The notes under the pieces: model-generated
What the model was told of the DNA's origin: nothing
Databases searched by the model: none
Seen by the model: only the letters and a program-made list of their open reading frames with translations
Assembly (NCBI GenBank): GCA_048938005.1
Contig: JBHLMQ010000060.1
Coordinates: 1-14,097 of the forward strand
Direction: 5' to 3'
DNA length: 14,097 nucleotides
DNA from: Promethearchaeota archaeon
Lineage (GTDB): Archaea > Asgardarchaeota > Lokiarchaeia > Sigyniarchaeales > SOKP01
In this document: positions 1,841-14,091 of the stretch, in pieces
How the letters are laid out: every line of letters begins with the position of its first letter
How positions within the stretch are numbered: position 1 is the first letter of the stretch
Position numbers and translations under genes: made by a program

Positions 1841-4800
1841 CTATTTTTTAGGTTTCTTCTTTTTCTCTGCTAAACCTCTTTCCTCCAATAAAGAGTCTAA
1901 ATCTATTTTCTCTTTTTCTTCAATTTCCTTAGGTTCTTCTTTCTTTTTTGGAATCTTTTTAACTGGTATAGGTTTTTTTAGCTCAGATACAGGCACATAT
2001 CTCCCTCTTCGTGGTTTCTTTTTAACTTCTTCAATAGGAGTTGCTAATTTTTTCCTTATTCTCAAAGCATAAATTATTATGGTAATCCAAACTAAAGCAA
2101 AAACAGCTCCTATGATAAAAACAAGATATTCTAAAATGTAATCATAAATAGGAATATCATAAATCTTAAATGAGGCTTCTTTAAGTACAACTATTGTCTC
2201 ATTTGTGAAAATGTTTTGTGCAGTTATAGAAACATTAATCTTAAATCTATTAAAATTTTTAATTGAAATTTCAATAATTAATCTAGTATTCTCATCTGGC
2301 GGCAACTGACTTAATAGAAGATAATCTATTTCAACAATTGAATATGATAAATCATGGTTAAGCTCAATAGAAATATTAGTAATTTTTAAATCAGAATCTC
2401 CAATATTATTAAGTATAATATCTAGAGTTGTGGCTCTATTTCGATAGATAAACACATTATTTGCTATTATGGACACCGAGAGGGCATTTAATTCATGAAT
2501 TACACTTACACTAATTGTTTTTGAAACTCCATTAATAGTATCACCCTCCCATATTAATCTAATTAATAAGTCTCCTTCAAAATCAATTGTTAATGTATTT
2601 ATCAAAAATGTTATAAATCCATTCGAATTCGTAATATCTGACCTAAAGTTAACCCATGAGTCAATTTCAAAGTATTGACAAGATATATTTTTGTTTGCTA
2701 ACGGCTTTCCAAATTCAGTTGCCAAAACAGCACTAATATTAATAGATTGTCCTTTAATCGGAGTGTTGGGATTAATTGTAATATCTGTAAATTTACTATT
2801 GAGTTTTAAGGAGAATTCACCTGTAAATTGGTTGTAGCTGCTAACATAATTCTGATCAAAGATATTAACTAAAATTGAGGTTTTATTCGGAAGATAAATG
2901 CATTCATCTCTATTGAATTCATTAAGGATAGGCTCGGCAGTTGTCTTATTTATTCTTAAACCAAGAATGTATCCATCATAATCGTTATTTGATTTATTAC
3001 TTAATAATGATAAATGAGCGCTTTCATATTTCCCAGTATCTGAACCCTCGATAAATACAGTAATTATTGTTTTTGCACCTGCCAATCTGATTGGGGCATT
3101 TACACCAGGCCAAATATTTGTAGCAAGACTTAGATCAGGAATTTTTAAATTAACATCAAATTCATTAGCATCGTCTGGATGTCCAGAGAATTTTAAATCA
3201 AAAGTGCTAGACGTATTTTCAGCTATGATCCATTCTTCATTCGCGAATGATACAAGTCTTACATTGATTTTTACACTCGCATTAAGAAAATAATGCAAAT
3301 TTTTACATGAAGCTTTTATATTGACAATCTCATTTGGATTTAAAATATTTTCACTCTGTTTAATAGAAGACAGCAAAATAGGTAATTTCTGACCTTCTAT
3401 TTTATAAATAAATTGTCTATTTATATTTGTAATATTAATAGGATAAAAATTTGGTATAGTAGTATCGTTAATAGACGCAATCATTAGTGTATAATCATGA
3501 TAAACTTTATCTACTTGTCCAAAAACTACATTTTTTCTTAAAGTTGGATTGTAATTGCAGCCATCCAATTGAGCATAATAAGTATCGATATAAGTGATTA
3601 CCTTTTTGCAGCCTATTGCAGATCCATTGAACCAAAAAAAGCCTAAATGATATTCTCCAAAGATTTTAAGATCATTTGTTAATTCTAAAATTGTTTCATT
3701 ATCAAAATCATAAATGAGGGATGCCCCTTTAACAATTCCACTTGAATCCTGTGGAAGAGTAGAAAACTTAGTACCATTAGGATAGAAAAGAGTCACATTC
3801 GAAACACCATTTAGAGGTGCTTTCGAATTATGATCTTGAATATCAACTCTAGTAGTAATATTATCACCATACATAAAACCATTTGTTTCCCATAAAATGT
3901 CGTTAAAATTAATATAACTATGCATTTTATAAATAAAATTATAGCTTGTGAGGTTTAAGGTATAATAACCATCTAGAATAGCAAAAGTTTTATTTACTAT
4001 GACTTTAGATTTCTCTGGATTTTCGGTTAAAATACTCTGTCCTTCTGTTTTGTAGAAAATTTCTTCAGGAACTGGATTTGTCAAATTATGGGCATTCAGA
4101 AAATTGTGATATGTAAACCAAAACTCTAAAAAATTCCATTTATCAAAGAAAGGATCGTTTTTGTTGAAATAATAAGTTAATACCCATTCAGGATCATTAT
4201 CATAAGATGCTCTATATGTAGTAGCAGCATTTTCAATCCAATATGCATTCACAGAATACGAAACATTAAATGTAAATCTTTTAATGTTGGTTTTATCCCA
4301 TGTCAGATTTATTTGAAATGTTGGATTATCTTCAATAGAAGTTGTAAAATTGTGGTGCCATCGCCCTTTGCCCCACTCTAAGGATGAACTTCCATTATAC
4401 GGAATTGATACATCCACAATTGGCAAATCTTGTATTTTTAAGGTTTGAGTATTATTAATATTAAAATCCGATGGTTTAAATCCTCTGGTAACATTCAATT
4501 TAAAAGAACTTGCATCTAATTGCCTAGAAATATACACGGAATCAATTTTTTTCTTAGCATTTTTCCATAAGCCTCCATCATCTTTTGTTGTTTTCAATTG
4601 ATGTTCAGTTCTTAAATCATCTCCATATTCGTCAAAAGGAAGTGTAACCAAACTATAAACTTCTTTTGGATTATTGGATTTAATTACGATAAAATAATTA
4701 GAAAGGTTTAGATTGGCTGTATTACCTTTATTTAATTCAAAATAAAAGAGTTCATCAGCAATATAATTGGTCACCAATTTAGTGTCTATTATTTCATCAT

Positions 4801-5911
4801 AATCTGGCCCCATATTAATATTTCTTAAATTAAGATCGGTTCTTTCAACAGTTCTATTAGCTCGATATAATGTAATGTTTAATTGTGTGGTGGCAGCTTC
4901 TACAAGATCTAATGTTCTTATCCAAGCATAAAATCCATTTACAGTGGTCTTTAAGCCTTTTAAATCAAATTCTAATGCCACATATTCCGTATCTGTTATA
5001 GGCAAATCGAAAGCATATGTAGATTGAAAATCAAATTTTTTTAATTCAATATTATATGGTGTGTTATCTGATCTTTCAAATACAAATTGAATTAAAATAG
5101 TATTAGTCAAATCAATATAGTTCAAATTTTCATTAATAAATCTGTATCGTATCTCCTGTTCCCCCAGACTACTATTTATGAAGTGTTTATTCGCAACATC
5201 TTCCCATCCATTTACAATATCTTTCATTTTTATGGTTAAATTCGCATCCTCATTAATATCAAAAACTAATGATAGAAGCAATCCTAAGATATGAGTCCTG
5301 TTAAATGCTACATTATATGGATTAGAATTCATATTTGAGAAATTTGCTGCTATTGTGAAATTTAAGATTCCATTAGTGGAATTACTTAAGTCTATAAACG
5401 AACCGTTATTAACATCTACCAAATCACCCCAATCTCCGCCATTATATTGTGCACCAGGGGTATATGTGATATTGGAATAATTCTCATCTGGATTGAAATC
5501 ATAGTATATAAAATCTCCCAAAGGATAGAGAGCATCATTATCCTCTAAAATATATTCGGTTGTAAAATTGCTCTGAAATGTAAAATTAAGATCCCCATAA
5601 GTGAGAAACATATCTTTTGACGGAATTGAAGGAATTTCAAAGAATTCCTCGTTATTATTTAAATTTTCAGACTTATTATTCGTATAAATTCGAACGTCTT
5701 GATCCACGCCAGATCCTGTAATAGTATCATCTAAATTAAGATCAGAATTTAAAGGAAATTTGTCTAGAACTCCTTCTTTAAAATTATTGTTTATCTCGTC
5801 ATCTTGAAATCCATTAAAACTACTTAATATTTGCACACTAGACAAAAAAATTGTTATCATGAAAAGTACGGCGAAGATAATTCGTTTTAAATCTTTTTTT
5901 CGTCGAATCAA
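1841..5911 (-). CDS. Large membrane-anchored cell-surface glycoprotein with beta-sandwich/Ig-like and CARDB-like C-terminal domains
   Basis: TTG start. Basic N-terminus plus hydrophobic signal/anchor (MIRRKKDLKRIIFAVLFMITIFLSSV). About 40 N-x-S/T sequons counted by hand. Ig-like G.PL.N..I...TNSNG segment and CARDB-like L.N.G...L..L.P.E segment. C-terminal TM helix (YLVFIIGAVFALVWITIIIYAL) and a 73-aa charged tail. Confidence 0.8.
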   Translation of the reverse strand: MIRRKKDLKRIIFAVLFMITIFLSSVQILSSFNGFQDDEINNNFKEGVLDKFPLNSDLNLDDTITGSGVDQDVRIYTNNKSENLNNNEEFFEIPSIPSKDMFLTYGDLNFTFQSNFTTEYILEDNDALYPLGDFIYYDFNPDENYSNITYTPGAQYNGGDWGDLVDVNNGSFIDLSNSTNGILNFTIAANFSNMNSNPYNVAFNRTHILGLLLSLVFDINEDANLTIKMKDIVNGWEDVANKHFINSSLGEQEIRYRFINENLNYIDLTNTILIQFVFERSDNTPYNIELKKFDFQSTYAFDLPITDTEYVALEFDLKGLKTTVNGFYAWIRTLDLVEAATTQLNITLYRANRTVERTDLNLRNINMGPDYDEIIDTKLVTNYIADELFYFELNKGNTANLNLSNYFIVIKSNNPKEVYSLVTLPFDEYGDDLRTEHQLKTTKDDGGLWKNAKKKIDSVYISRQLDASSFKLNVTRGFKPSDFNINNTQTLKIQDLPIVDVSIPYNGSSSLEWGKGRWHHNFTTSIEDNPTFQINLTWDKTNIKRFTFNVSYSVNAYWIENAATTYRASYDNDPEWVLTYYFNKNDPFFDKWNFLEFWFTYHNFLNAHNLTNPVPEEIFYKTEGQSILTENPEKSKVIVNKTFAILDGYYTLNLTSYNFIYKMHSYINFNDILWETNGFMYGDNITTRVDIQDHNSKAPLNGVSNVTLFYPNGTKFSTLPQDSSGIVKGASLIYDFDNETILELTNDLKIFGEYHLGFFWFNGSAIGCKKVITYIDTYYAQLDGCNYNPTLRKNVVFGQVDKVYHDYTLMIASINDTTIPNFYPINITNINRQFIYKIEGQKLPILLSSIKQSENILNPNEIVNIKASCKNLHYFLNASVKINVRLVSFANEEWIIAENTSSTFDLKFSGHPDDANEFDVNLKIPDLSLATNIWPGVNAPIRLAGAKTIITVFIEGSDTGKYESAHLSLLSNKSNNDYDGYILGLRINKTTAEPILNEFNRDECIYLPNKTSILVNIFDQNYVSSYNQFTGEFSLKLNSKFTDITINPNTPIKGQSINISAVLATEFGKPLANKNISCQYFEIDSWVNFRSDITNSNGFITFLINTLTIDFEGDLLIRLIWEGDTINGVSKTISVSVIHELNALSVSIIANNVFIYRNRATTLDIILNNIGDSDLKITNISIELNHDLSYSIVEIDYLLLSQLPPDENTRLIIEISIKNFNRFKINVSITAQNIFTNETIVVLKEASFKIYDIPIYDYILEYLVFIIGAVFALVWITIIIYALRIRKKLATPIEEVKKKPRRGRYVPVSELKKPIPVKKIPKKKEEPKEIEEKEKIDLDSLLEERGLAEKKKKPKK

Positions 5912-7515: not shown

Positions 7516-8697
7516 TTGCCTGAATCAAAAATAGAAGATACAGTCATTCTCTTAGATGCTTCTAGGTCCATGTTAAGAAAAGATTTTAAACCAACTAGAT
7601 TGGTTATTGAATTACAAGCAGCTAAGAATTTCATTCAATCAAAATTATCAATTGATATGAAAGATCGAATTTCAATAATTACTTTTGGAGGAATTACAAA
7701 GAAGTTAATTGATTTCGCATTTGAAGAACAAAAATTAATCGAATCACTAAAGAATGTCCAGATTTCGGGCCGAGGATTCCTTCATGAGGGTATTGCTTTT
7801 GCTCTTCAAGTTCTTGTAAAAGAATTGCGGAAAGTTGGAGGGAAAACTCCGCGTATATTCATAATTACCGATAGCAAACTAAATATTGATGAGATCAAAT
7901 TAGAAAAAATGGTTAAAATCTCTAAGGGTTTAGGTGTGTTTATTGATGCATGTCAGCTAGGTGGAACGCAAGAATACGGAAAAAATTCTCTAAAAAAAAT
8001 AGCACAATCAACTGGGGGAGAATATGGATATTTCAACAATTCAAAAGAATTAATTAATGCAGGTAAAGTTTTTGCTTCGAAAAAAAGTGTAATGGAAACT
8101 ACAGACTATTTCTCTCCTGATAAAAACGATAAAATAGCACCACTAGTCAGCGAGATTGCCCTGCCATTAAGGAGACCATCTATGTCAGATATCAGGTTAA
8201 TTATAAAAGGATCAGATAGAACACGAGAGAAATGTCAAATTTGTCATTCTGTTAAAGCAGCAGTAACAGGTGCTGATTTTTTCAGTGAGGGGCGTTATTG
8301 TCCCAGCTGTGACCGACCAATGCATTTATCTTGTGCTGCAATGTGGGCTAAAAAAACAGAATATAAAGAAAATGTTTTCAGGTGCCCATTCTGCTTCTTT
8401 CTTCTATCACTTTCACCAGCAGCATTGAAACTTATTAAAGATAAAGAAGATTTAATGCAAGAAATAGAAATTATAGATGAAGATGAAAGATCAGAAACAA
8501 AGATGGTAGTAATTCCACGTCAAAAAATAGAACAAATAGATGCATCATGCTCTTATTGCCATAGTATTTTTTTAGGTGATTTTAAAGTCTATCGATGTGA
8601 AGTATGCAATGCATATTACCATGAACCATGTCTTCAAAAAATGAAAAAAGAAATTAAAGCTTGTAGGTATTGTGGAGCTAAAATTATTAACGATTAA
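7516..8697 (+). CDS. VWA domain (Ssl1/Rpn10-like) protein with two C4HC3 RING/PHD-type zinc fingers; TFIIH p44/Ssl1-like architecture
   Basis: TTG start. VWA motifs ILLDASRSM..KDFKPTRL (DxSxS), RIFIITDS and IAQSTGGEY. Finger 1 is C-x2-C-x18-C-x2-C-x4-H-x2-C-x16-C-x2-C (8233-8394). Finger 2 is C-x2-C-x12-C-x2-C-x4-H-x2-C-x10-C-x2-C (8548-8673). Confidence 0.8.
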   Translation: MPESKIEDTVILLDASRSMLRKDFKPTRLVIELQAAKNFIQSKLSIDMKDRISIITFGGITKKLIDFAFEEQKLIESLKNVQISGRGFLHEGIAFALQVLVKELRKVGGKTPRIFIITDSKLNIDEIKLEKMVKISKGLGVFIDACQLGGTQEYGKNSLKKIAQSTGGEYGYFNNSKELINAGKVFASKKSVMETTDYFSPDKNDKIAPLVSEIALPLRRPSMSDIRLIIKGSDRTREKCQICHSVKAAVTGADFFSEGRYCPSCDRPMHLSCAAMWAKKTEYKENVFRCPFCFFLLSLSPAALKLIKDKEDLMQEIEIIDEDERSETKMVVIPRQKIEQIDASCSYCHSIFLGDFKVYRCEVCNAYYHEPCLQKMKKEIKACRYCGAKIIND

Positions 8698-8790: not shown

Positions 8791-10848
8791 GTGATTAATT
8801 TAGCGAATAATCATAAAGGTAAATGGGTTGTAACATCTGCGTGGCCCTACGTGAATGCTACACCTCATCTGGGCAATTTAATTGGAAGTACATTATCAGC
8901 TGATGTATTTGCAAGATTCCTGAGACTGAATGGAGAAGAAGTGGTGTTTGTTTCTGGTTCGGATTCTCATGGAACGCCCATTTCAGTGGAAGCAAAAAAA
9001 TTAAATGTTTCAGCTGAAGAGTTAGCATTAAAGTATCATAAAATCATTAAAGATTTACATGAACAATGGCAAATATCTTTTGACAATTACACGATAACAC
9101 ACAATCCTACCCATATAGAATTTGTACAGAAAATGTATTTAGATATACAGAAAAATGGTTATATCTTAGAAAAAGAGATAGAATCCCTATACTGTGAAAA
9201 TGATAATTTATACTTACCCGACAGATTTGTTGAAGGAACTTGTCCTCATTGTGGGTATGATGATGCAAGAGGAGATCAATGTGATAAGTGTCAGAAATTA
9301 TTAACCCCATTAGAATTGATAAACCCAAGATGCGCAATTTGTGGAAATGCTCCTGTTATTAGAAAAACGAAACACTGGTATTTCGATTTACCTAAATTGC
9401 AGGATCGAATAACTAAGTTAATTGAAGAAAATAAAATTATCCCCTCTAATGCTCGACAAATGTGCTTAAATATGATTGCAGAAGGGTTACATGAACGTGC
9501 AATTACCCGAGATTTAGACTGGGGCATTCCTGCTCCCTTTAAAGGTGCTGAAAATAAAACAATATATGTATGGTCCGAAGCAGTATTAGGTTATATTACT
9601 GCTGTAAAAGAGTGGGCAGAAAAAATAATTAATGAACCGAATAAATTTGATTATTTCTGGAAAGATTCAGAAACTAAAACAGTTTACTTTGTTGGCAAAG
9701 ATAATATAATATTTCATTTAATTCTCTTTCCAGGACTCATTTTGGCTTATAATAATGATAAAAAGAAAGGTGAGCAGTTTGTTCTTCCATACAATGTTTC
9801 ATCGACAGAATTTTTAATGTATGAGAATGACAAATTTTCTAAGTCAAGAGGAATTGGTATATGGATTGATGAGGCGTTAAAATTAGCACCTTTAGATTAT
9901 TGGAGATTTAATCTACTATTTAATCGCCCAGAAACGAGTGATACATCGTTTTTATGGTCTGAATTTGATAACAATATAAAAACTCTTAACGATAATATTG
10001 GAAATTTTATACATCGGACTTTAACTTTTATTGAAAAACAATTTAATAGCAAAATTCCAGAAAGAATGGAAGATGATGAGATTGATAAAAAATTTATAGA
10101 AAAGTTAAATAGTATTAGGGCAGAAGCGGGTGAAAGTCTGAGGAATTTTAAAATAAGAAAAGCAATAAGAGATATTGTCAATTTTGGTAAAGAAGGTAAT
10201 ATTTACTTGAATGAAAAAGCTCCATGGCATTTAATTAAAAAAGATAAAAAGGCTGCTGGGCATGTTTTTAATATTTGTGCTCAAGCAGTATATGCATTAG
10301 CGGTTTTGTTAGGTTCTTTTATCCCTGAAACATCTAATAAAATTTTATCATATTTGAATGTCCCAGAATTATCAAAAATTACTTGGGATAGCATTAATGA
10401 TCATTCTATAAAAGCAGGGCAAAGAATTAAAAAACCGGAACCGCTCTTTCAAAAATTTGATATAGAAGAAATTAAAAAAGAATATAAAAAATTAAAAGAA
10501 GAAAAACCAAAAGAAGGTGATAAAGAACTGATTTCTTATGAAGATTTTCAAAAATTAGACATTCGAGTTGCCTTGGTTGAAAATGTTGAACAAGTTCCTA
10601 AAGCCGACAAGCTCTATAAAATATCGATCGATTTAGGAACTGAAAAAAGAACAGTGGTTGCTGGCTTAGCTGAATATTATAAAGTCGAGGATTTAAAAGG
10701 AAAAAAAATTGTTGTTTTAACAAATTTAGAACCAAGAAAATTACGTGGAATTTTAAGTGAAGGTATGCTTCTTGCTGCCGTTGAAGGTGAAAATGTCTCA
10801 ATAATAATCCCTGATAAAGATCTTCCTCCCGGAGCTAGAATTGAATAA
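8791..10848 (+). CDS. metG: Methionine--tRNA ligase with C-terminal tRNA-binding (Trbp111/EMAPII-like OB-fold) domain
   Basis: Motifs TSAWPYVNATPHLGN (HIGH), GSDSHG, zinc knuckles CPHC/CDKC/CAIC, ITRDLDWGIP, YVW, GKDNI.FH and KFSKSRG (KMSKS). C-terminal domain DF.KLDIRV...ADKLY...NLEPRKLRGILSEGMLLAA. Confidence 0.98.
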   Translation: MINLANNHKGKWVVTSAWPYVNATPHLGNLIGSTLSADVFARFLRLNGEEVVFVSGSDSHGTPISVEAKKLNVSAEELALKYHKIIKDLHEQWQISFDNYTITHNPTHIEFVQKMYLDIQKNGYILEKEIESLYCENDNLYLPDRFVEGTCPHCGYDDARGDQCDKCQKLLTPLELINPRCAICGNAPVIRKTKHWYFDLPKLQDRITKLIEENKIIPSNARQMCLNMIAEGLHERAITRDLDWGIPAPFKGAENKTIYVWSEAVLGYITAVKEWAEKIINEPNKFDYFWKDSETKTVYFVGKDNIIFHLILFPGLILAYNNDKKKGEQFVLPYNVSSTEFLMYENDKFSKSRGIGIWIDEALKLAPLDYWRFNLLFNRPETSDTSFLWSEFDNNIKTLNDNIGNFIHRTLTFIEKQFNSKIPERMEDDEIDKKFIEKLNSIRAEAGESLRNFKIRKAIRDIVNFGKEGNIYLNEKAPWHLIKKDKKAAGHVFNICAQAVYALAVLLGSFIPETSNKILSYLNVPELSKITWDSINDHSIKAGQRIKKPEPLFQKFDIEEIKKEYKKLKEEKPKEGDKELISYEDFQKLDIRVALVENVEQVPKADKLYKISIDLGTEKRTVVAGLAEYYKVEDLKGKKIVVLTNLEPRKLRGILSEGMLLAAVEGENVSIIIPDKDLPPGARIE

Positions 10849-10849
10849 A

Positions 10850-12094
10850 TTATAATTTTAATGAAAACAATGGATTTAATCGAGCAATTATTTCTCCAAG
10901 ATCCAATTGAATCGTTTTAAGTACAATATCTCTCCCTCTATATTCAAATTGTAATTCACTCACGTTCCTTATTATTTTTAATCTACTCATGCTTGTTTTT
11001 AAAGAAGTAACAAAGTATCTTTGATCTTTGTATTCTATTATATCCAATACATCTTTTATATCATTAAATTCATACCCTCCTCCATGTGGAAGGAGATTGG
11101 CATTTGTTAATAATTCTAAGAGTTCTAAATCTTCTGCTCTATCTAAGAGGTTTTGATTTTTAAGAGTTGTTTCAGTTAAATTTTTCTTTCCCGAAAATAA
11201 GTAAGCTGCAATGTCTGCTCTAAGAGTTGTGGGAAATATATTTGAATGAATTAAATCGCAATTAATATCTGTACAATTGCTTCCTAGATACATGTTATTA
11301 TAATCTTTTAGAAACTGATGTGGTTGATTGCATATGACTTCATATCCGTAATCAAAAAGATTATTTGCTATAATTTCTCGTTTTAAATTAGAAAATTCTA
11401 AAGCCTTTTTGTTGAATTCAAGATAATCTTTAGCATCAGAATCTAATAAAATATATTGTATACCAAATTTACTTCTTTCTTCAATCGCAATATCTTTTAA
11501 TGTTTTTGATTTATCAATATACAGTCCCATTCCGTAAGAATTGTCTCTAAACTCAGGGGCAGAACCATGAATTAAAAAGATATAAGGTGGAAGATCAATA
11601 TCAGAAAGATTTTTTGTTTCAAAGCAGTTAATAAAATGATTAGATATTCCATAATCCCAATCTATCAAGATTTCATCATGGTATAGTTCTTCTGATTTAA
11701 TTCTATCAATTTTTTTAATTAATTCATAGGGATCAGGTAATTCTTCAAAGCCACCAACTAAGATACCACAACAGTTTGGTTTAGTATTAAGAAAAATTAA
11801 TTTATCTTCTCCACTCCCCCAATTTAATCTCCCTCCATACCCTAATCCAGAATTCCATCTATATTTATTTCGTGAGATTGTTTCATCAGGAGAAGAAATA
11901 AATGTTGCCTTTGGTTCAAACCCGTATTTCTCTTGAATTAAGTGAAACATCGAAAGCCCATATTTCATGTTTGCCTTACATAATTTTGATGCTCCATCAT
12001 TTAGACCTGTTGAAAAAATGAATTGACTTGCTCTATCTAATAAATCTGATTTTGATAATTCTGAGATATTTTGAGAAAGGATTGATGAACCCAT
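10850..12094 (-). CDS. Highly divergent RtcB-fold protein (GTP/Mn-dependent RNA ligase superfamily)
   Basis: Colinear RtcB-like motifs: SPD70..GLGYGG (MPDxH..GFPIGG), PNCC109G (DINCG), GISN152H153F (GxGNHF), LIH176GS (MxHSGS), DYL...ALEFS..KR, PH259Q (HN), AYLFSG, PH337GGG (HGAG), EYR (AYK) and ARLNPLFSLK413 (C-terminal L.P+..+K). Confidence 0.75.
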   Translation of the reverse strand: MGSSILSQNISELSKSDLLDRASQFIFSTGLNDGASKLCKANMKYGLSMFHLIQEKYGFEPKATFISSPDETISRNKYRWNSGLGYGGRLNWGSGEDKLIFLNTKPNCCGILVGGFEELPDPYELIKKIDRIKSEELYHDEILIDWDYGISNHFINCFETKNLSDIDLPPYIFLIHGSAPEFRDNSYGMGLYIDKSKTLKDIAIEERSKFGIQYILLDSDAKDYLEFNKKALEFSNLKREIIANNLFDYGYEVICNQPHQFLKDYNNMYLGSNCTDINCDLIHSNIFPTTLRADIAAYLFSGKKNLTETTLKNQNLLDRAEDLELLELLTNANLLPHGGGYEFNDIKDVLDIIEYKDQRYFVTSLKTSMSRLKIIRNVSELQFEYRGRDIVLKTIQLDLGEIIARLNPLFSLKL

Positions 12095-12229
12095 TTTATA
12101 TTATCTACTAGCCTATAAATAAATTCTATCTAAAATTATATGGGAAAGTATACATATATAATATTAATGATATTACATTGAAATATTTGGTAAAAAAGAG
12201 TCTAAAATATTGATGATAAAATAGTTACC

Positions 12230-12853
12230 ATGAATGATTCGGCTAGTATTGTTTTAATTGATTCATTAAAAGATATATTAATTAATGGAGAATTTACAGG
12301 GTCAATTATTTCAAAATGGGAAGATGAAATTATCTTCTCTGACAATATAAAAATATCAGATTCTGATGGAATTATCATATCTGAGGGTTTACTTATAGGT
12401 TTTGAAAAGACTGGTAACACGTTAAATCCTTTTTCAAGAACTTCTGATTTTAAATGGGATATAAAAGAATCTCCATTGGAATATTCTCTTTTAATTCCTG
12501 AAAATGTAATGGAGCAGTATGATCAGGGACAATTTTCTAATGAATTCCCTTTTACTATTAATTTACTCCACACAGCAGGTTTATATTTAAATGATATTAA
12601 ATTTGGTGTAAATCATTTAGATTTTTTTAAAGGTGAAATTCTAAGAAATCCTATTTCAATGATTAAGAATGGTATAATTGTCGCTGATAGAGTAGTTATA
12701 GATCATAATGGTGATCCTGTGTTTTATGATTGCTTGATAGTTGGAAGGGATGAACGTGATGATCTTAATATAAGTTATGAACCAATTATTAATGTCGATG
12801 ATAAAGTGGTTGAATATATCATAATTTTAGGAATTGAGGAATTAAAAATTTAA
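12230..12853 (+). CDS. Hypothetical acidic, Ile/Asp/Glu-rich protein of unknown function
   Basis: 207-aa ORF filling the gap between two genes and ending 17 nt before the ATPase start. No recognisable family. The frame is open upstream to 12206, so an ATT start at 12209 is possible. Confidence 0.7.
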   Translation: MNDSASIVLIDSLKDILINGEFTGSIISKWEDEIIFSDNIKISDSDGIIISEGLLIGFEKTGNTLNPFSRTSDFKWDIKESPLEYSLLIPENVMEQYDQGQFSNEFPFTINLLHTAGLYLNDIKFGVNHLDFFKGEILRNPISMIKNGIIVADRVVIDHNGDPVFYDCLIVGRDERDDLNISYEPIINVDDKVVEYIIILGIEELKI

Positions 12854-12870
12854 AGTAATTATGATTCAAA

Positions 12871-14091
12871 ATGCTTCTTTTCGAAAATAAAGAAAAAAAA
12901 TTAATTAATCTCTTAAAATTCACAGGATCTCCCTTTAAAAAATTTGTTTCTACAGGAGAAATCGAAGAAGATATTGGGCTTGTAAAATCAAGGCAAGATT
13001 TATTAAGTGCTATCATAAATATAATTGAAAAAAATGAAAATTTCATCTTGCCAATAATTGGAAATGTAGGTACTGGAAAAACACATCTTTACTGGGCATT
13101 GAAACATGAATTGTATTATTATAATATAGTCTATATTTCATTAGAGAATGTTATGAAGAAATTTTATTATTATACATACTCAGAATTCATTGAAAGTATG
13201 GATGTAGAGGTTTTAAGAAGCATCGCAAAAAGATTATGTAATGAATGGGGCGCTTTAGAGAGAAAATATGGTTTTTTTCATTTGGCTGAGTGTGAAAAGG
13301 TGAGAAAAGTTGCTTTTGAGGAATGGGCTCCAAAATTTGAAAATAAAGCCGCGATAGTGGATATAATAAACGCTATAACTGCGCATCAATTAGATCCATA
13401 TAAAAAGGTAGAAGCAGAAAGGTGGCTTTTAGGAGAAGTATTGGATATAAGAGAACTTTCAAGATTGAATTTAATGCATGACTTAAGAGAAAAAAATAAT
13501 TCTTACACAATGCTGAAAGTATTAGTTGAAAATTCGATGGTAAGTAGTGTATTATTTATTGATGATTTCGAAAAAATTATAACTATGATGAAACCTATAC
13601 CTTTAGAGGAAGAAACGGAAGAAGTTTTTGATAGAAGTTGGCTTTATAGCACGAAGGAGTCTCCAGATAAAGATACAGCTGCAAAAACATTAGATAAAAT
13701 TATTCAATTAAACAAAATTAAGGGTCTGAGAATCATAATTACCTTAAAATCATTTGATTTGTATGAAGAAATTAAGAGAGAATTTGAAGAAAGGAACAAT
13801 AATCTTTTAGATGTATTAAAGGAGCCTATTACCTTATCAAACTTTTTAGAAGAAGATCTAAATAAGTTCTATAAAAGAAATTTGGAATATTTTTTTGGAA
13901 GCATTAATTACTTCGATTATTTTAGGGATTTCCCAGATTCATATTATCCACTAAACGAAAAAGTGTTGAACTATATTTATAATAATACTGAGGGCAATCC
14001 CAGAGAAATTATTAAGTTATTGATCAAAATTTTCAATGAGATAGTGTTATCTAATAAAAATTTAAATGAAGTCCTTAAAAAATATCAATAA
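12871..14091 (+). CDS. P-loop AAA+-type ATPase, BrxD/DUF2791-like
   Basis: Walker A IIGNVGTGKTH, helical insert with RWLLGE, Walker B VLFIDDFE, and C-terminal YPL....GNPREIIK (sensor-2-like). The ATPase call is firm and the subfamily is tentative. Confidence 0.8.
   Translation: MLLFENKEKKLINLLKFTGSPFKKFVSTGEIEEDIGLVKSRQDLLSAIINIIEKNENFILPIIGNVGTGKTHLYWALKHELYYYNIVYISLENVMKKFYYYTYSEFIESMDVEVLRSIAKRLCNEWGALERKYGFFHLAECEKVRKVAFEEWAPKFENKAAIVDIINAITAHQLDPYKKVEAERWLLGEVLDIRELSRLNLMHDLREKNNSYTMLKVLVENSMVSSVLFIDDFEKIITMMKPIPLEEETEEVFDRSWLYSTKESPDKDTAAKTLDKIIQLNKIKGLRIIITLKSFDLYEEIKREFEERNNNLLDVLKEPITLSNFLEEDLNKFYKRNLEYFFGSINYFDYFRDFPDSYYPLNEKVLNYIYNNTEGNPREIIKLLIKIFNEIVLSNKNLNEVLKKYQ

Follow-up and report, generated by a model that had tools for sequence, protein, structure and literature searches.

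A Sister Family of the RNA Ligase RtcB with Phosphoesterase Gene Partners and a Probably Different Substrate

The DNA considered here is a stretch of 14,097 nucleotides (the window) that comprises positions 1 to 14,097 of contig JBHLMQ010000060.1 from a Promethearchaeota archaeon (assembly GCA_048938005.1), a member of the Asgard archaea. It contains a gene for a protein of 414 residues, denoted P0001, in which a preliminary description made from the sequence alone had recognized the motifs of the RNA ligase RtcB in an altered form. The chemistry of RtcB, in which a histidine-GMP intermediate is formed and a 3'-phosphate is activated, is unusual among ligases. The question raised by this locus is whether P0001 is an RtcB and, if so, whether it is the tRNA ligase of the cell or an enzyme that acts on something else. 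P0001 was found to belong to a real sister family of RtcB for which there is no curated Pfam or NCBIfam model, and this family is genetically tied to phosphoesterases by linkage and by co-occurrence. The reading that we favor, with a confidence slightly better than even, is that P0001 is not the tRNA-splicing ligase of the cell but a member of a widespread sister family with an altered substrate and a phosphoesterase as its partner.

Fold and Separateness from the Canonical RtcB

The relationship to RtcB is beyond the reach of single-sequence searches, and thus only profiles and structure arrive at it. A Pfam scan of P0001 returned two insignificant matches, and the RtcB family (PF01139) was absent at E ≤ 10. 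In NCBIfam only two models were matched, both of them for RtcB, with E values of 0.04–0.05 over 30–40 residues: NF007153 at 12.9 bits (cutoff of 407) and TIGR03073 at 12.6 bits (cutoff of 271.8). A phmmer search of the PDB sequences with P0001 gave chance matches only. The profile searches used an alignment of 78 near-full-length relatives (A1), chosen from 150 listed representatives of 238 clusters, whose members are 23–73% identical to P0001. PF01139 matches 3 of these 78 relatives, at a best E value of 0.0071. The four best PDB matches to the A1 profile are all RtcBs, namely, 2epg (E = 0.0032), 1uc2 (0.0088), 4dwr (0.0091), and 7lfq (0.01), and the next is a GAPDH at 0.042. As a reference we aligned the canonical RtcBs from 25 of 31 Asgard loci, the other six having been left out by a filter on open reading frames (ORFs) and motifs. 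With hhalign in local mode, A1 was matched to this reference with an E value of 4.4e-5 and a probability of 69%, residues 147–413 pairing with RtcB residues 206–489; a second and weak match (E = 0.031, probability of 1.6%) paired residues 80–134 with residues 77–130. The global mode gave a probability of 11.6% and a misaligned N-terminus, and the local mode was used instead.

The AlphaFold2 model of P0001, computed on A1, has a predicted local distance difference test score (pLDDT) of 96.1 and a predicted template modeling score of 0.94. Foldseek found 16 PDB matches at E ≤ 0.001, and the 12 listed are all RtcBs (best E value of 1.8e-8, probability of 1.00, TM scores of 0.42–0.47); the next fold follows at 0.079. 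When the model was compared with the best 997 Foldseek chains by VIA-align, 16 chains reached Z ≥ 8. The ten entries listed are again all RtcBs, with Z scores of 18.9–22.3 and root-mean-square deviations of 3.3–3.7 Å over 308–320 residues, such that residues 15–414 of the model are superimposed on residues ~16–481 of the chain, and the next match has a Z score of 4.6. The sequence identity in these structural alignments is 9–15%. The fold comparison that the preliminary description had called for thus returned RtcB alone, over the whole length, and on the predicted model P0001 is a member of the RtcB superfamily at the level of the fold.

P0001 is accompanied in its genome by a canonical RtcB. 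The source genome (3.72 Mb in 101 contigs, 95% complete) contains a single gene that matches PF01139, which encodes 490 residues and scores 568 bits, on contig C57. The sole archease gene of the genome (147.3 bits) is found 37 bp from this canonical gene and not near P0001, and an archease cluster is not among the recurrent neighbors of the family gene in the 99 loci examined below. The A1 profile, even at E ≤ 1, finds only the P0001 gene in this genome. With the filters off, the A1 profile scores the 25 Asgard RtcBs at ~13–16 bits and the RtcB profile scores the A1 members at ≤9.3 bits, so that 9–16 bits between the families stand against 470–570 bits within them, and P0001 is not nested among the canonical RtcBs. 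The fold, the residue conservation presented below, the absence of a PF01139 match, and the separate canonical RtcB together bear out the earlier proposal of a distinct RtcB-superfamily branch that is labeled hypothetical. Canonical RtcB was found in 59 of the 61 Asgard genomes sampled. At five of the canonical loci (G298, G299, G302, G015, and G011), the RtcB match is split (model positions 1–50 and ~45–426) within single frames of 973–1015 residues, a pattern that would fit an inserted element, for example an intein.

Active-Site Residues

According to the available text of PMC9745838, metal M1 of the Pyrococcus horikoshii enzyme (PhoRtcB) is bound by Cys98, His234, and His329, metal M2 is bound by Cys98, Asp95, and His203, and both metals are used for guanylylation. 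His404 attacks the α-phosphate of GTP, Asn202 and Asn330 hydrogen bond to the phosphates, and the guanine is read by Lys480 (at O6) and Glu206 (at N1/N2) (PMC9745838). According to the accessible part of PMC8051266, Asn202 also binds the nucleophilic 5'-OH, and the first phosphates of its strand are contacted by Arg238, Arg190, and Gln194. P0001 was mapped onto PhoRtcB with the profile alignments (A1 against the PDB, and hhalign), and conservation was counted in A1 (n = 78). The motifs quoted in the preliminary description all occur at the residues given there: KPNCCG (C109), SNHFIN (N152-H153), IHGSAPE (H176), PHQ (H259), YLGSN (G271), PHGGGY (H337), and the penultimate K413. Their coordinates and PhoRtcB counterparts are collected in Table 1 with those of the other features of the window.

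Table 1. Features of the window and the active-site motifs of P0001, by position in the window.
Feature	Position	Strand	Remark
ORF of P0001, 414 residues	10850..12094	-	RtcB-fold family without a curated model; ATG start, no internal stop
D70 in a conserved PD motif (73 of 78)	11885..11887	-	No RtcB counterpart established; candidate ligand replacing Asp95
P106-N107-C108-C109	11768..11779	-	C109 aligns with metal-bridging Cys98; P106 at the Asp95 (M2) position
N152-H153-F154-I155-N156	11627..11641	-	Aligns with RtcB NHFxE; N152/H153 as Asn202/His203; N156 replaces Glu206
H176-G-S-A-P180	11555..11569	-	H176 aligns with His234 (M1); P180 at the Arg238 position
H259-Q260	11315..11320	-	H259 aligns with His329 (M1); Q260 with Asn330
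H337-G-G-G-Y341	11072..11086	-	H337 aligns with the nucleotidyl acceptor His404; Y341 replaces the Arg of HGAGR
K413, penultimate residue	10856..10858	-	Aligns with Lys480 (guanine O6 contact)
Methionyl-tRNA synthetase (metG), 685 residues, uninterrupted	8791-10848		Convergent with the P0001 gene
A+T-rich spacer, 135 bp	12095..12229		Common to the P0001 gene and the divergent 207-residue ORF; presumed promoter region
207-residue ORF without a family match, then after 18 bp a 406-residue P-loop/AAA-like protein	12230-14091	+
1356-residue ORF, no Pfam family	1841-5911	-	Looks like a large surface protein
393-residue protein with a von Willebrand A domain	7516-8697	+
Roadblock/LC7 domain protein, 123 residues	1405-1776	+

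H153, H176, H259, G271, and H337 are invariant in A1, and D70, C109, G110, N152, F154, R239, P336, G338, and G340 are conserved at 90% or more. By alignment, the M1 ligand set is complete (C109, H176, and H259), with C109 found in 74 of the 78 sequences. The M2 set is incomplete, since C109 and H153 are kept and the counterpart of Asp95 is lost; the Asp95 position is a proline in 62 sequences, and the neighboring N107 is conserved in 69. Either N107 or D70 might substitute for the missing ligand. The preliminary description had stated that the Asp of the RtcB motif DINCG is absent from KPNCCG. The string is indeed present, but the register of PNxCG with DINCG is weakly supported (E = 0.031). 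Among the residues that contact the 5'-OH strand, the counterpart of Asn202 is kept (N152, 75 of 78) and that of Arg238 is lost, this position being P in 23, S in 15, R in 9, and K in 6 sequences. The guanine reader Glu206 is replaced by N in 24 and by D in 13 sequences, and is E in 13 and S in 6. The Asn330 position is Q in 50, the Lys480 position is K in 42 and R in 13, and Y341 is Y in 57. Because C109, H153, H176, H259, and H337 align with active-site residues of RtcB, they would be expected to cluster in space.

The A1 columns thus indicate strong constraint on M1, on half of M2, on the nucleophile, and on the asparagine that positions the hydroxyl; as aligned, the family does not keep one M2 ligand, the reader of guanine N1/N2, or the arginine known to bind the strand. 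Since the counterparts of Arg238, Glu206, and Asp95 are gone, the substrate, and perhaps the nucleotide, would differ from that of RtcB. The loss of several conserved basic residues noted earlier applies to Arg238 and to the arginine of HGAGR, but the family has basic residues of its own (R75, R79, K/R183, R239, and R386). The conserved residues proper to the family are these together with D70, N76, N107, E181, and Y385. In the comparison of the A1 profile with the PDB, Y385 aligns with Tyr451 of PhoRtcB, which we take to be the base-stacking residue.

Two explanations without ligase-type chemistry can be weighed on these residues. The first is that the family is merely a metal-dependent phosphoesterase or cyclic phosphodiesterase built on the RtcB metal site, with no nucleotidyl-histidine. 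RtcB itself has an intrinsic 2',3'-cyclic phosphodiesterase step, according to the accessible part of PMC8051266, and the losses of the Glu206 and Asp95 counterparts agree with this explanation, as do gene partners that would all be phosphate-ester hydrolases or kinases. H337 and the surrounding PHGxG motif, on the other hand, are invariant or nearly so (P336 in 77, H337 in 78, G338 in 74, and G340 in 76 of 78), which is hard to explain unless the H337 nucleophile is in use, and a basic residue, K or R, occupies the Lys480 position in 55 of the 78 sequences. We regard a mere phosphoesterase as improbable. The second explanation is that the family is a relic of RtcB that has a structural or regulatory role and no catalysis. 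The lack of a curated model, the lack of a partner in the window, and the loss of some RtcB catalytic-site residues would be in keeping with a relic; four invariant histidines and a near-invariant cysteine, maintained across bacteria and archaea at 24–44% overall identity, and a gene that is single-copy and intact in 119 of the 134 genomes of its own Asgard family (f1) speak so strongly against one that we give it very little credence. Judged by this conservation, the family is probably active as an enzyme, and we infer that the histidine-nucleotidylation chemistry has been kept.

Family Range and Genetic Linkage to Phosphoesterases

A word-indexed protein collection contains 733 relatives of P0001 at E ≤ 0.001, the best 120 of which are 77–100% identical to it. 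The homologues with source names come from Asgard metagenome-assembled genomes labeled Promethearchaeota/Lokiarchaeota, Hod-, Thor-, Odin-, and Hermodarchaeota, and every named copy is a "hypothetical protein". An exhaustive search returned 238 clusters at 50% identity, 176 of them at E ≤ 1e-10 and 77 at E ≤ 1e-30. When contigs from one genome per species were searched with a 12-sequence sub-alignment (A2), 214 relatives were obtained. Of these 214 loci, 80 were kept, and all come from uncultured organisms. The archaea among them are Altiarchaeota, Hadarchaeota, Nano-/Woesearchaeota, Bathyarchaeota, Thermoproteota, Hydrothermarchaeota, Methanohalarchaeum, and Asgard; the bacteria are Actinomycetota, Aerophobetes, Clostridia, Anaerolineae, Spirochaetota, Planctomycetota, Armatimonadetes, Bipolaricaulia, and others. 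A look-up in the ESM Atlas agrees in outline. The family is present in 212 of 400 Asgard genomes and in 55 of the 90 of high quality, and it was not found in several Asgard families (e.g., 0 of 12, 0 of 19, and 0 of 7 genomes). In the literature on RtcB, RtcB-like proteins, and Asgard archaea, titles and the openings of abstracts hold no description of the family; supplements and subscription journals were outside this scope.

Exceptional conservation, which identities of 77–92% had suggested, was rejected. P0001 is 43.5–46.0% identical to its orthologues in three other Asgard genomes, whereas the canonical RtcBs of the same genome pairs are 54.8–57.0% identical, and the high identities of the best homologues are due to the dense sampling of close relatives. 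P0001 has an isoelectric point (pI) of 5.2, and the median over 99 family members is 6.5; for the 25 Asgard RtcBs the median is 8.65. In one lineage, an APH-type kinase domain is fused to the N-terminus of the family domain (proteins of 743 and 748 residues). This is the only fusion seen; no other fused forms were found among lengths of 810–2310 residues, which is weak evidence. A family member of 635 residues (L094:2273-4177) has an extension of ~230 residues that has no Pfam match.

Gene neighborhoods were compared in 99 loci. Of these, 78 come from the set of 80 kept relatives (two duplicates were dropped), 20 are Asgard regions, and one is the window. Neighbors within three genes were taken from mechanical ORF calls and clustered by BLASTP, and the cluster representatives were named by Pfam, NCBIfam, and the PDB. 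At least one recurrent partner is found in 70 of the 99 loci. The most frequent is an HD-domain protein of ~217 residues (29 loci), which is adjacent to the family gene on the same strand in 25 cases, with several 4-bp overlaps, and occurs under 10 lineage labels in both domains. The HD partners are a tight orthologous group with a mean column identity of 48%, and the best PDB match to their profile is YpgQ from Bacillus subtilis (5dqv, E = 7.1e-21), which is described in the available text of PMC8177086 as a Mn-dependent (d)NTP diphosphatase. An ATP-grasp protein of ~447 residues is present in 18 loci, and its model (pLDDT of 90.8) resembles glutathione and glutathionylspermidine synthetases. 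AP_endonuc_2 TIM barrels that are closest to sugar epimerases are present in 14 loci and AstE/AspA-type deacylases in 13. A metallophosphoesterase (MPE) of ~525 residues is found in 8 loci and a glycerophosphodiester phosphodiesterase-type protein (GDPD) in 7. Endonuclease Q (EndoQ; 5zb8, E = 6.7e-61) is found in 8 loci, always directly downstream and only in Clostridia and Aerophobetes. MetRS, ProRS, TrmI, and ETF were put down to lineage-specific synteny and rejected as partners; each occurs under just one to four labels, and the MetRS gene is convergent with the family gene. In a FastTree phylogeny of 99 proteins (support and root not assessed), P0001 groups with two partner-less Lokiarchaeial copies, and the next group out consists of two archaeal loci in which the family gene is flanked by GDPD and MPE. 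A predicted complex of a Thorarchaeal family member with its adjacent HD protein scored 0.00 and gave no answer.

Some other arrangements were observed in single lineages. In two Spirochaetota loci (L148 and L149), the family gene lies between two ATP-grasp genes that resemble D-Ala-D-Ala ligase, and a radical SAM gene resembling lysine-2,3-aminomutase is upstream of it. In three Asgard loci (L069, L076, and L077), the family gene is followed by a pyruvoyl arginine decarboxylase and a deoxyhypusine synthase.

Co-occurrence was counted in the Asgard genomes with the HD profile at E ≤ 1e-25 and the MPE profile at E ≤ 1e-60; these genomes are related, and the counts are descriptive. A top tier of HD proteins (209–318 bits) is found in 46 Asgard genomes, 45 of which also have the P0001 family, the exception being G132. 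A lower tier (~110–135 bits) is widespread and includes f19 (14 of 19), where the P0001 family is found in 0 of 19 genomes. The MPE follows the P0001 family from one Asgard family to the next. In f1 the MPE is found in 111 and the P0001 family in 119 of 134 genomes; the corresponding counts are 10 and 11 of 14 in f3, 12 and 13 of 31 in f13, 3 and 3 of 3 in f14, 8 and 9 of 12 in f15, and 21 and 22 of 22 in f16, and both are absent from all genomes of f18, f19, f20, f24, and f25 (36 genomes in f18–f20). The agreement in f13 extends to single genomes, where 11 have both, 2 have only the P0001 family, 1 has only the MPE, and 17 have neither.

The source genome encodes a full-length MPE orthologue of 531 residues at the start of contig C49 (positions 325–1917). 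It is not linked to P0001 and is 58% identical to the copy that flanks the family gene in the sister clade. The sequence of this MPE found no match in the PDB, and an ESM Atlas look-up with its C-terminal half returned metallophosphoesterase clusters only. At this locus (L167, G000:C49:1-3402), the gene 6 bp upstream of the MPE, on the same strand, is truncated at the edge of the contig and encodes the C-terminus of a hexapeptide-repeat (LbH) protein; the MPE is followed by a small ThiS-like protein and a GTPase of the Gtr1/RagA family. The HD protein of the source genome (118.8 bits) was rejected as an orthologue of the partner, because its tier is present in the family-less f19 and its neighbors are unrelated.

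The partners and the residues together bear on a further explanation, that the family acts on polynucleotide ends, which it would bind through a surface unlike that of RtcB, either to repair RNA or DNA by ligation or to cap 3'-phosphates, with its partners healing or de-capping the ends. RtcB itself ligates 5'-OH DNA and caps DNA 3'-phosphates (PMC8051266, in the part available). The asparagine whose RtcB counterpart binds the nucleophilic 5'-OH is conserved as N152 (75 of 78 sequences), and basic residues proper to the family are conserved as well. The nearest relative of the HD partner is a (d)NTP pyrophosphohydrolase, EndoQ is directly downstream on the same strand in 8 loci, and the family occurs in the genome-reduced Nano-/Woesearchaeota (DPANN; 8 of the 99 loci, four of them as pairs of HD and family gene). 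To be set against this are the loss of the Arg238 counterpart, the low pI relative to the Asgard RtcBs, the many partners of small-molecule type (GDPD, the APH kinase fusion, the glutathione-synthetase-like ligase, and the AstE-like deacylase), and the restriction of EndoQ to two related lineage labels. We consider a polynucleotide-end enzyme unlikely, but it deserves to be taken seriously.

The G+C content across the window is 26–34%. Only 2 bp separate the end of the P0001 gene from the stop codon of the convergent MetRS gene. The pair of genes on its other side, the 207-residue ORF and the AAA-like protein, is also upstream of the family gene in the related Lokiarchaeial loci L078 and L079, and the PADLOC models of defense systems matched neither P0001 nor these two upstream neighbors. 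In L079 (G189:C1), the MetRS ORF downstream of the family gene has just 415 residues and is followed, after a gap of 496 bp, by a 650-residue ORF on the same strand. The 1356-residue ORF has an N-terminal hydrophobic stretch, an Asn/Thr-rich body, and a C-terminal hydrophobic stretch followed by a Lys/Glu-rich tail. The 393-residue protein combines its N-terminal von Willebrand A (Ssl1-like) domain with C-terminal Cys-rich zinc-finger-like repeats that have weak C1/Rubicon-homology matches.

Proposed Reaction and Comparison with Known Systems

The substrate of the P0001 family is probably not spliced tRNA, because residues that hold RNA and read guanine N1/N2 are lost and because enzymes that cleave phosphate esters are its companions elsewhere. 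What it is instead can be suggested only tentatively. We lean toward a phosphate ester that is not a polynucleotide, such as a glycerophospho compound, and we place this ahead of nucleic acids chiefly because the nearest partnered relatives of P0001 carry GDPD and MPE. The APH kinase fusion, the combination of a glutathione-synthetase-like ligase with an AstE-like deacylase, the barrels that resemble sugar epimerases, the loss of Arg238, and the acidic pI point in the same direction.

In the reaction that we propose, the enzyme would first react with an NTP in a transition-metal-dependent step to form a covalent His337-NMP. The NMP would then be passed to a terminal phosphate, or to a cyclic phosphate that is opened first, to give an X-pp-N intermediate, and a hydroxyl might subsequently displace the NMP to form a phosphodiester. 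The phosphoesterase partner could either prepare the phosphate end or hydrolyze the pp-linked product. We infer this role from the gene associations, and the candidate for it would vary by lineage: the YpgQ-like HD protein in many, and in the clade of P0001 itself the 525-residue MPE with or without GDPD. A bolder and rather doubtful extension is that the family seals esters that are not polynucleotides. GDPD, MPE, or HD would cut a glycerophospho- or similar diester and leave a cyclic or terminal phosphate, His337-NMP would reactivate this phosphate, and the phosphate would be joined to a new hydroxyl. Polar head groups, or metabolites with phosphodiester links, would in this way be cut and rejoined in a kind of "splicing" cycle. 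To our knowledge, sealing chemistry of the RtcB type is known so far only for RNA.

Several observations weigh against the overall reading of a phosphoesterase-partnered sister family with an altered substrate. The equivalence of C109 with Cys98 relies on the weak secondary alignment (E = 0.031) together with the structural match over the whole chain. The M2 site may fail to form for lack of Asp95, and guanylylation by RtcB uses both metals. In the window itself, no partner gene is co-transcribed with the P0001 gene, which is flanked by the convergent MetRS gene and a divergent ORF of no recognized family, and the window is one of 29 loci, among the 99, without any recurrent partner. The partners are also mixed: EndoQ and the nucleotide pyrophosphohydrolase suggest a substrate among nucleic acids or nucleotides, and GDPD, the kinase of APH type, the ligase resembling glutathione synthetase, and the barrels resembling sugar epimerases suggest small molecules. 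The source genome has an HD paralogue of the lower tier only, the tier that is also found in f19. In f27 the P0001 family is present in 4 of 4 genomes and the MPE in 0 of 4, and in f28 the P0001 family is present in 0 of 5 and the MPE in 4 of 5. In the last three families together, the P0001 family is found in 21 and the MPE in 1 of 89 genomes, with HD as the partner there; f31 has HD only. Finally, the genomes are kin and the loci were found via the family itself, and so the counts overstate independence.

If a second family with the RtcB fold acts on another substrate, it would show this chemistry put to another use. The tight coupling of the family gene to a YpgQ-like HD protein or to a long MPE provides concrete two-protein systems. 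There is also a gap in annotation, since about half of the Asgard genomes searched carry the family beside a normal tRNA ligase and its named copies are all hypothetical.

Three known systems are the closest to the P0001 family. The first is RtcB itself (PF01139; PH1602 in 1uc2, 4dwq, and 4dwr, TTHA1785 in 2epg, and human RTCB in 7p3b and 8odo). P0001 resembles it in the predicted whole-length fold, in the order of the motifs, and in the aligned counterparts of Cys98, Asn202, His203, His234, His329, His404, and Lys480. It differs in being ~70 residues shorter (414 compared with 481–505), in lacking the counterparts of Asp95, Arg238, Glu206, and the arginine of HGAGR, in its acidic pI, in scoring below the curated thresholds, and in having other gene partners and no archease beside it. 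The second is the PrfH-associated RtcB2 (TIGR03073, "release_rtcB"), which repairs 16S rRNA according to the available part of PMC13166195. RtcB2 is likewise a compact RtcB paralogue (model length of 356) that coexists with other RtcBs, and TIGR03073 is one of the two faint NCBIfam matches to P0001 (E = 0.05), over residues 208–248 only. In contrast to RtcB2, no release-factor-like neighbor was seen around the P0001 family in the 99 loci.

The third comparison is with the RNA repair modules of the heal-and-seal type, which consist of a kinase, a metallophosphoesterase, and a ligase, as in the bacterial Pnkp/Hen1 system. The P0001 family has the RtcB fold and is not a lysine-adenylyltransferase, and the kinase that is fused to it is of the APH small-molecule/protein-kinase-like type and not a P-loop polynucleotide kinase. 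The likeness lies in the composition of the modules: a putative sealing-type enzyme is coupled to an MPE or an HD protein and, in one lineage, is fused to a kinase.

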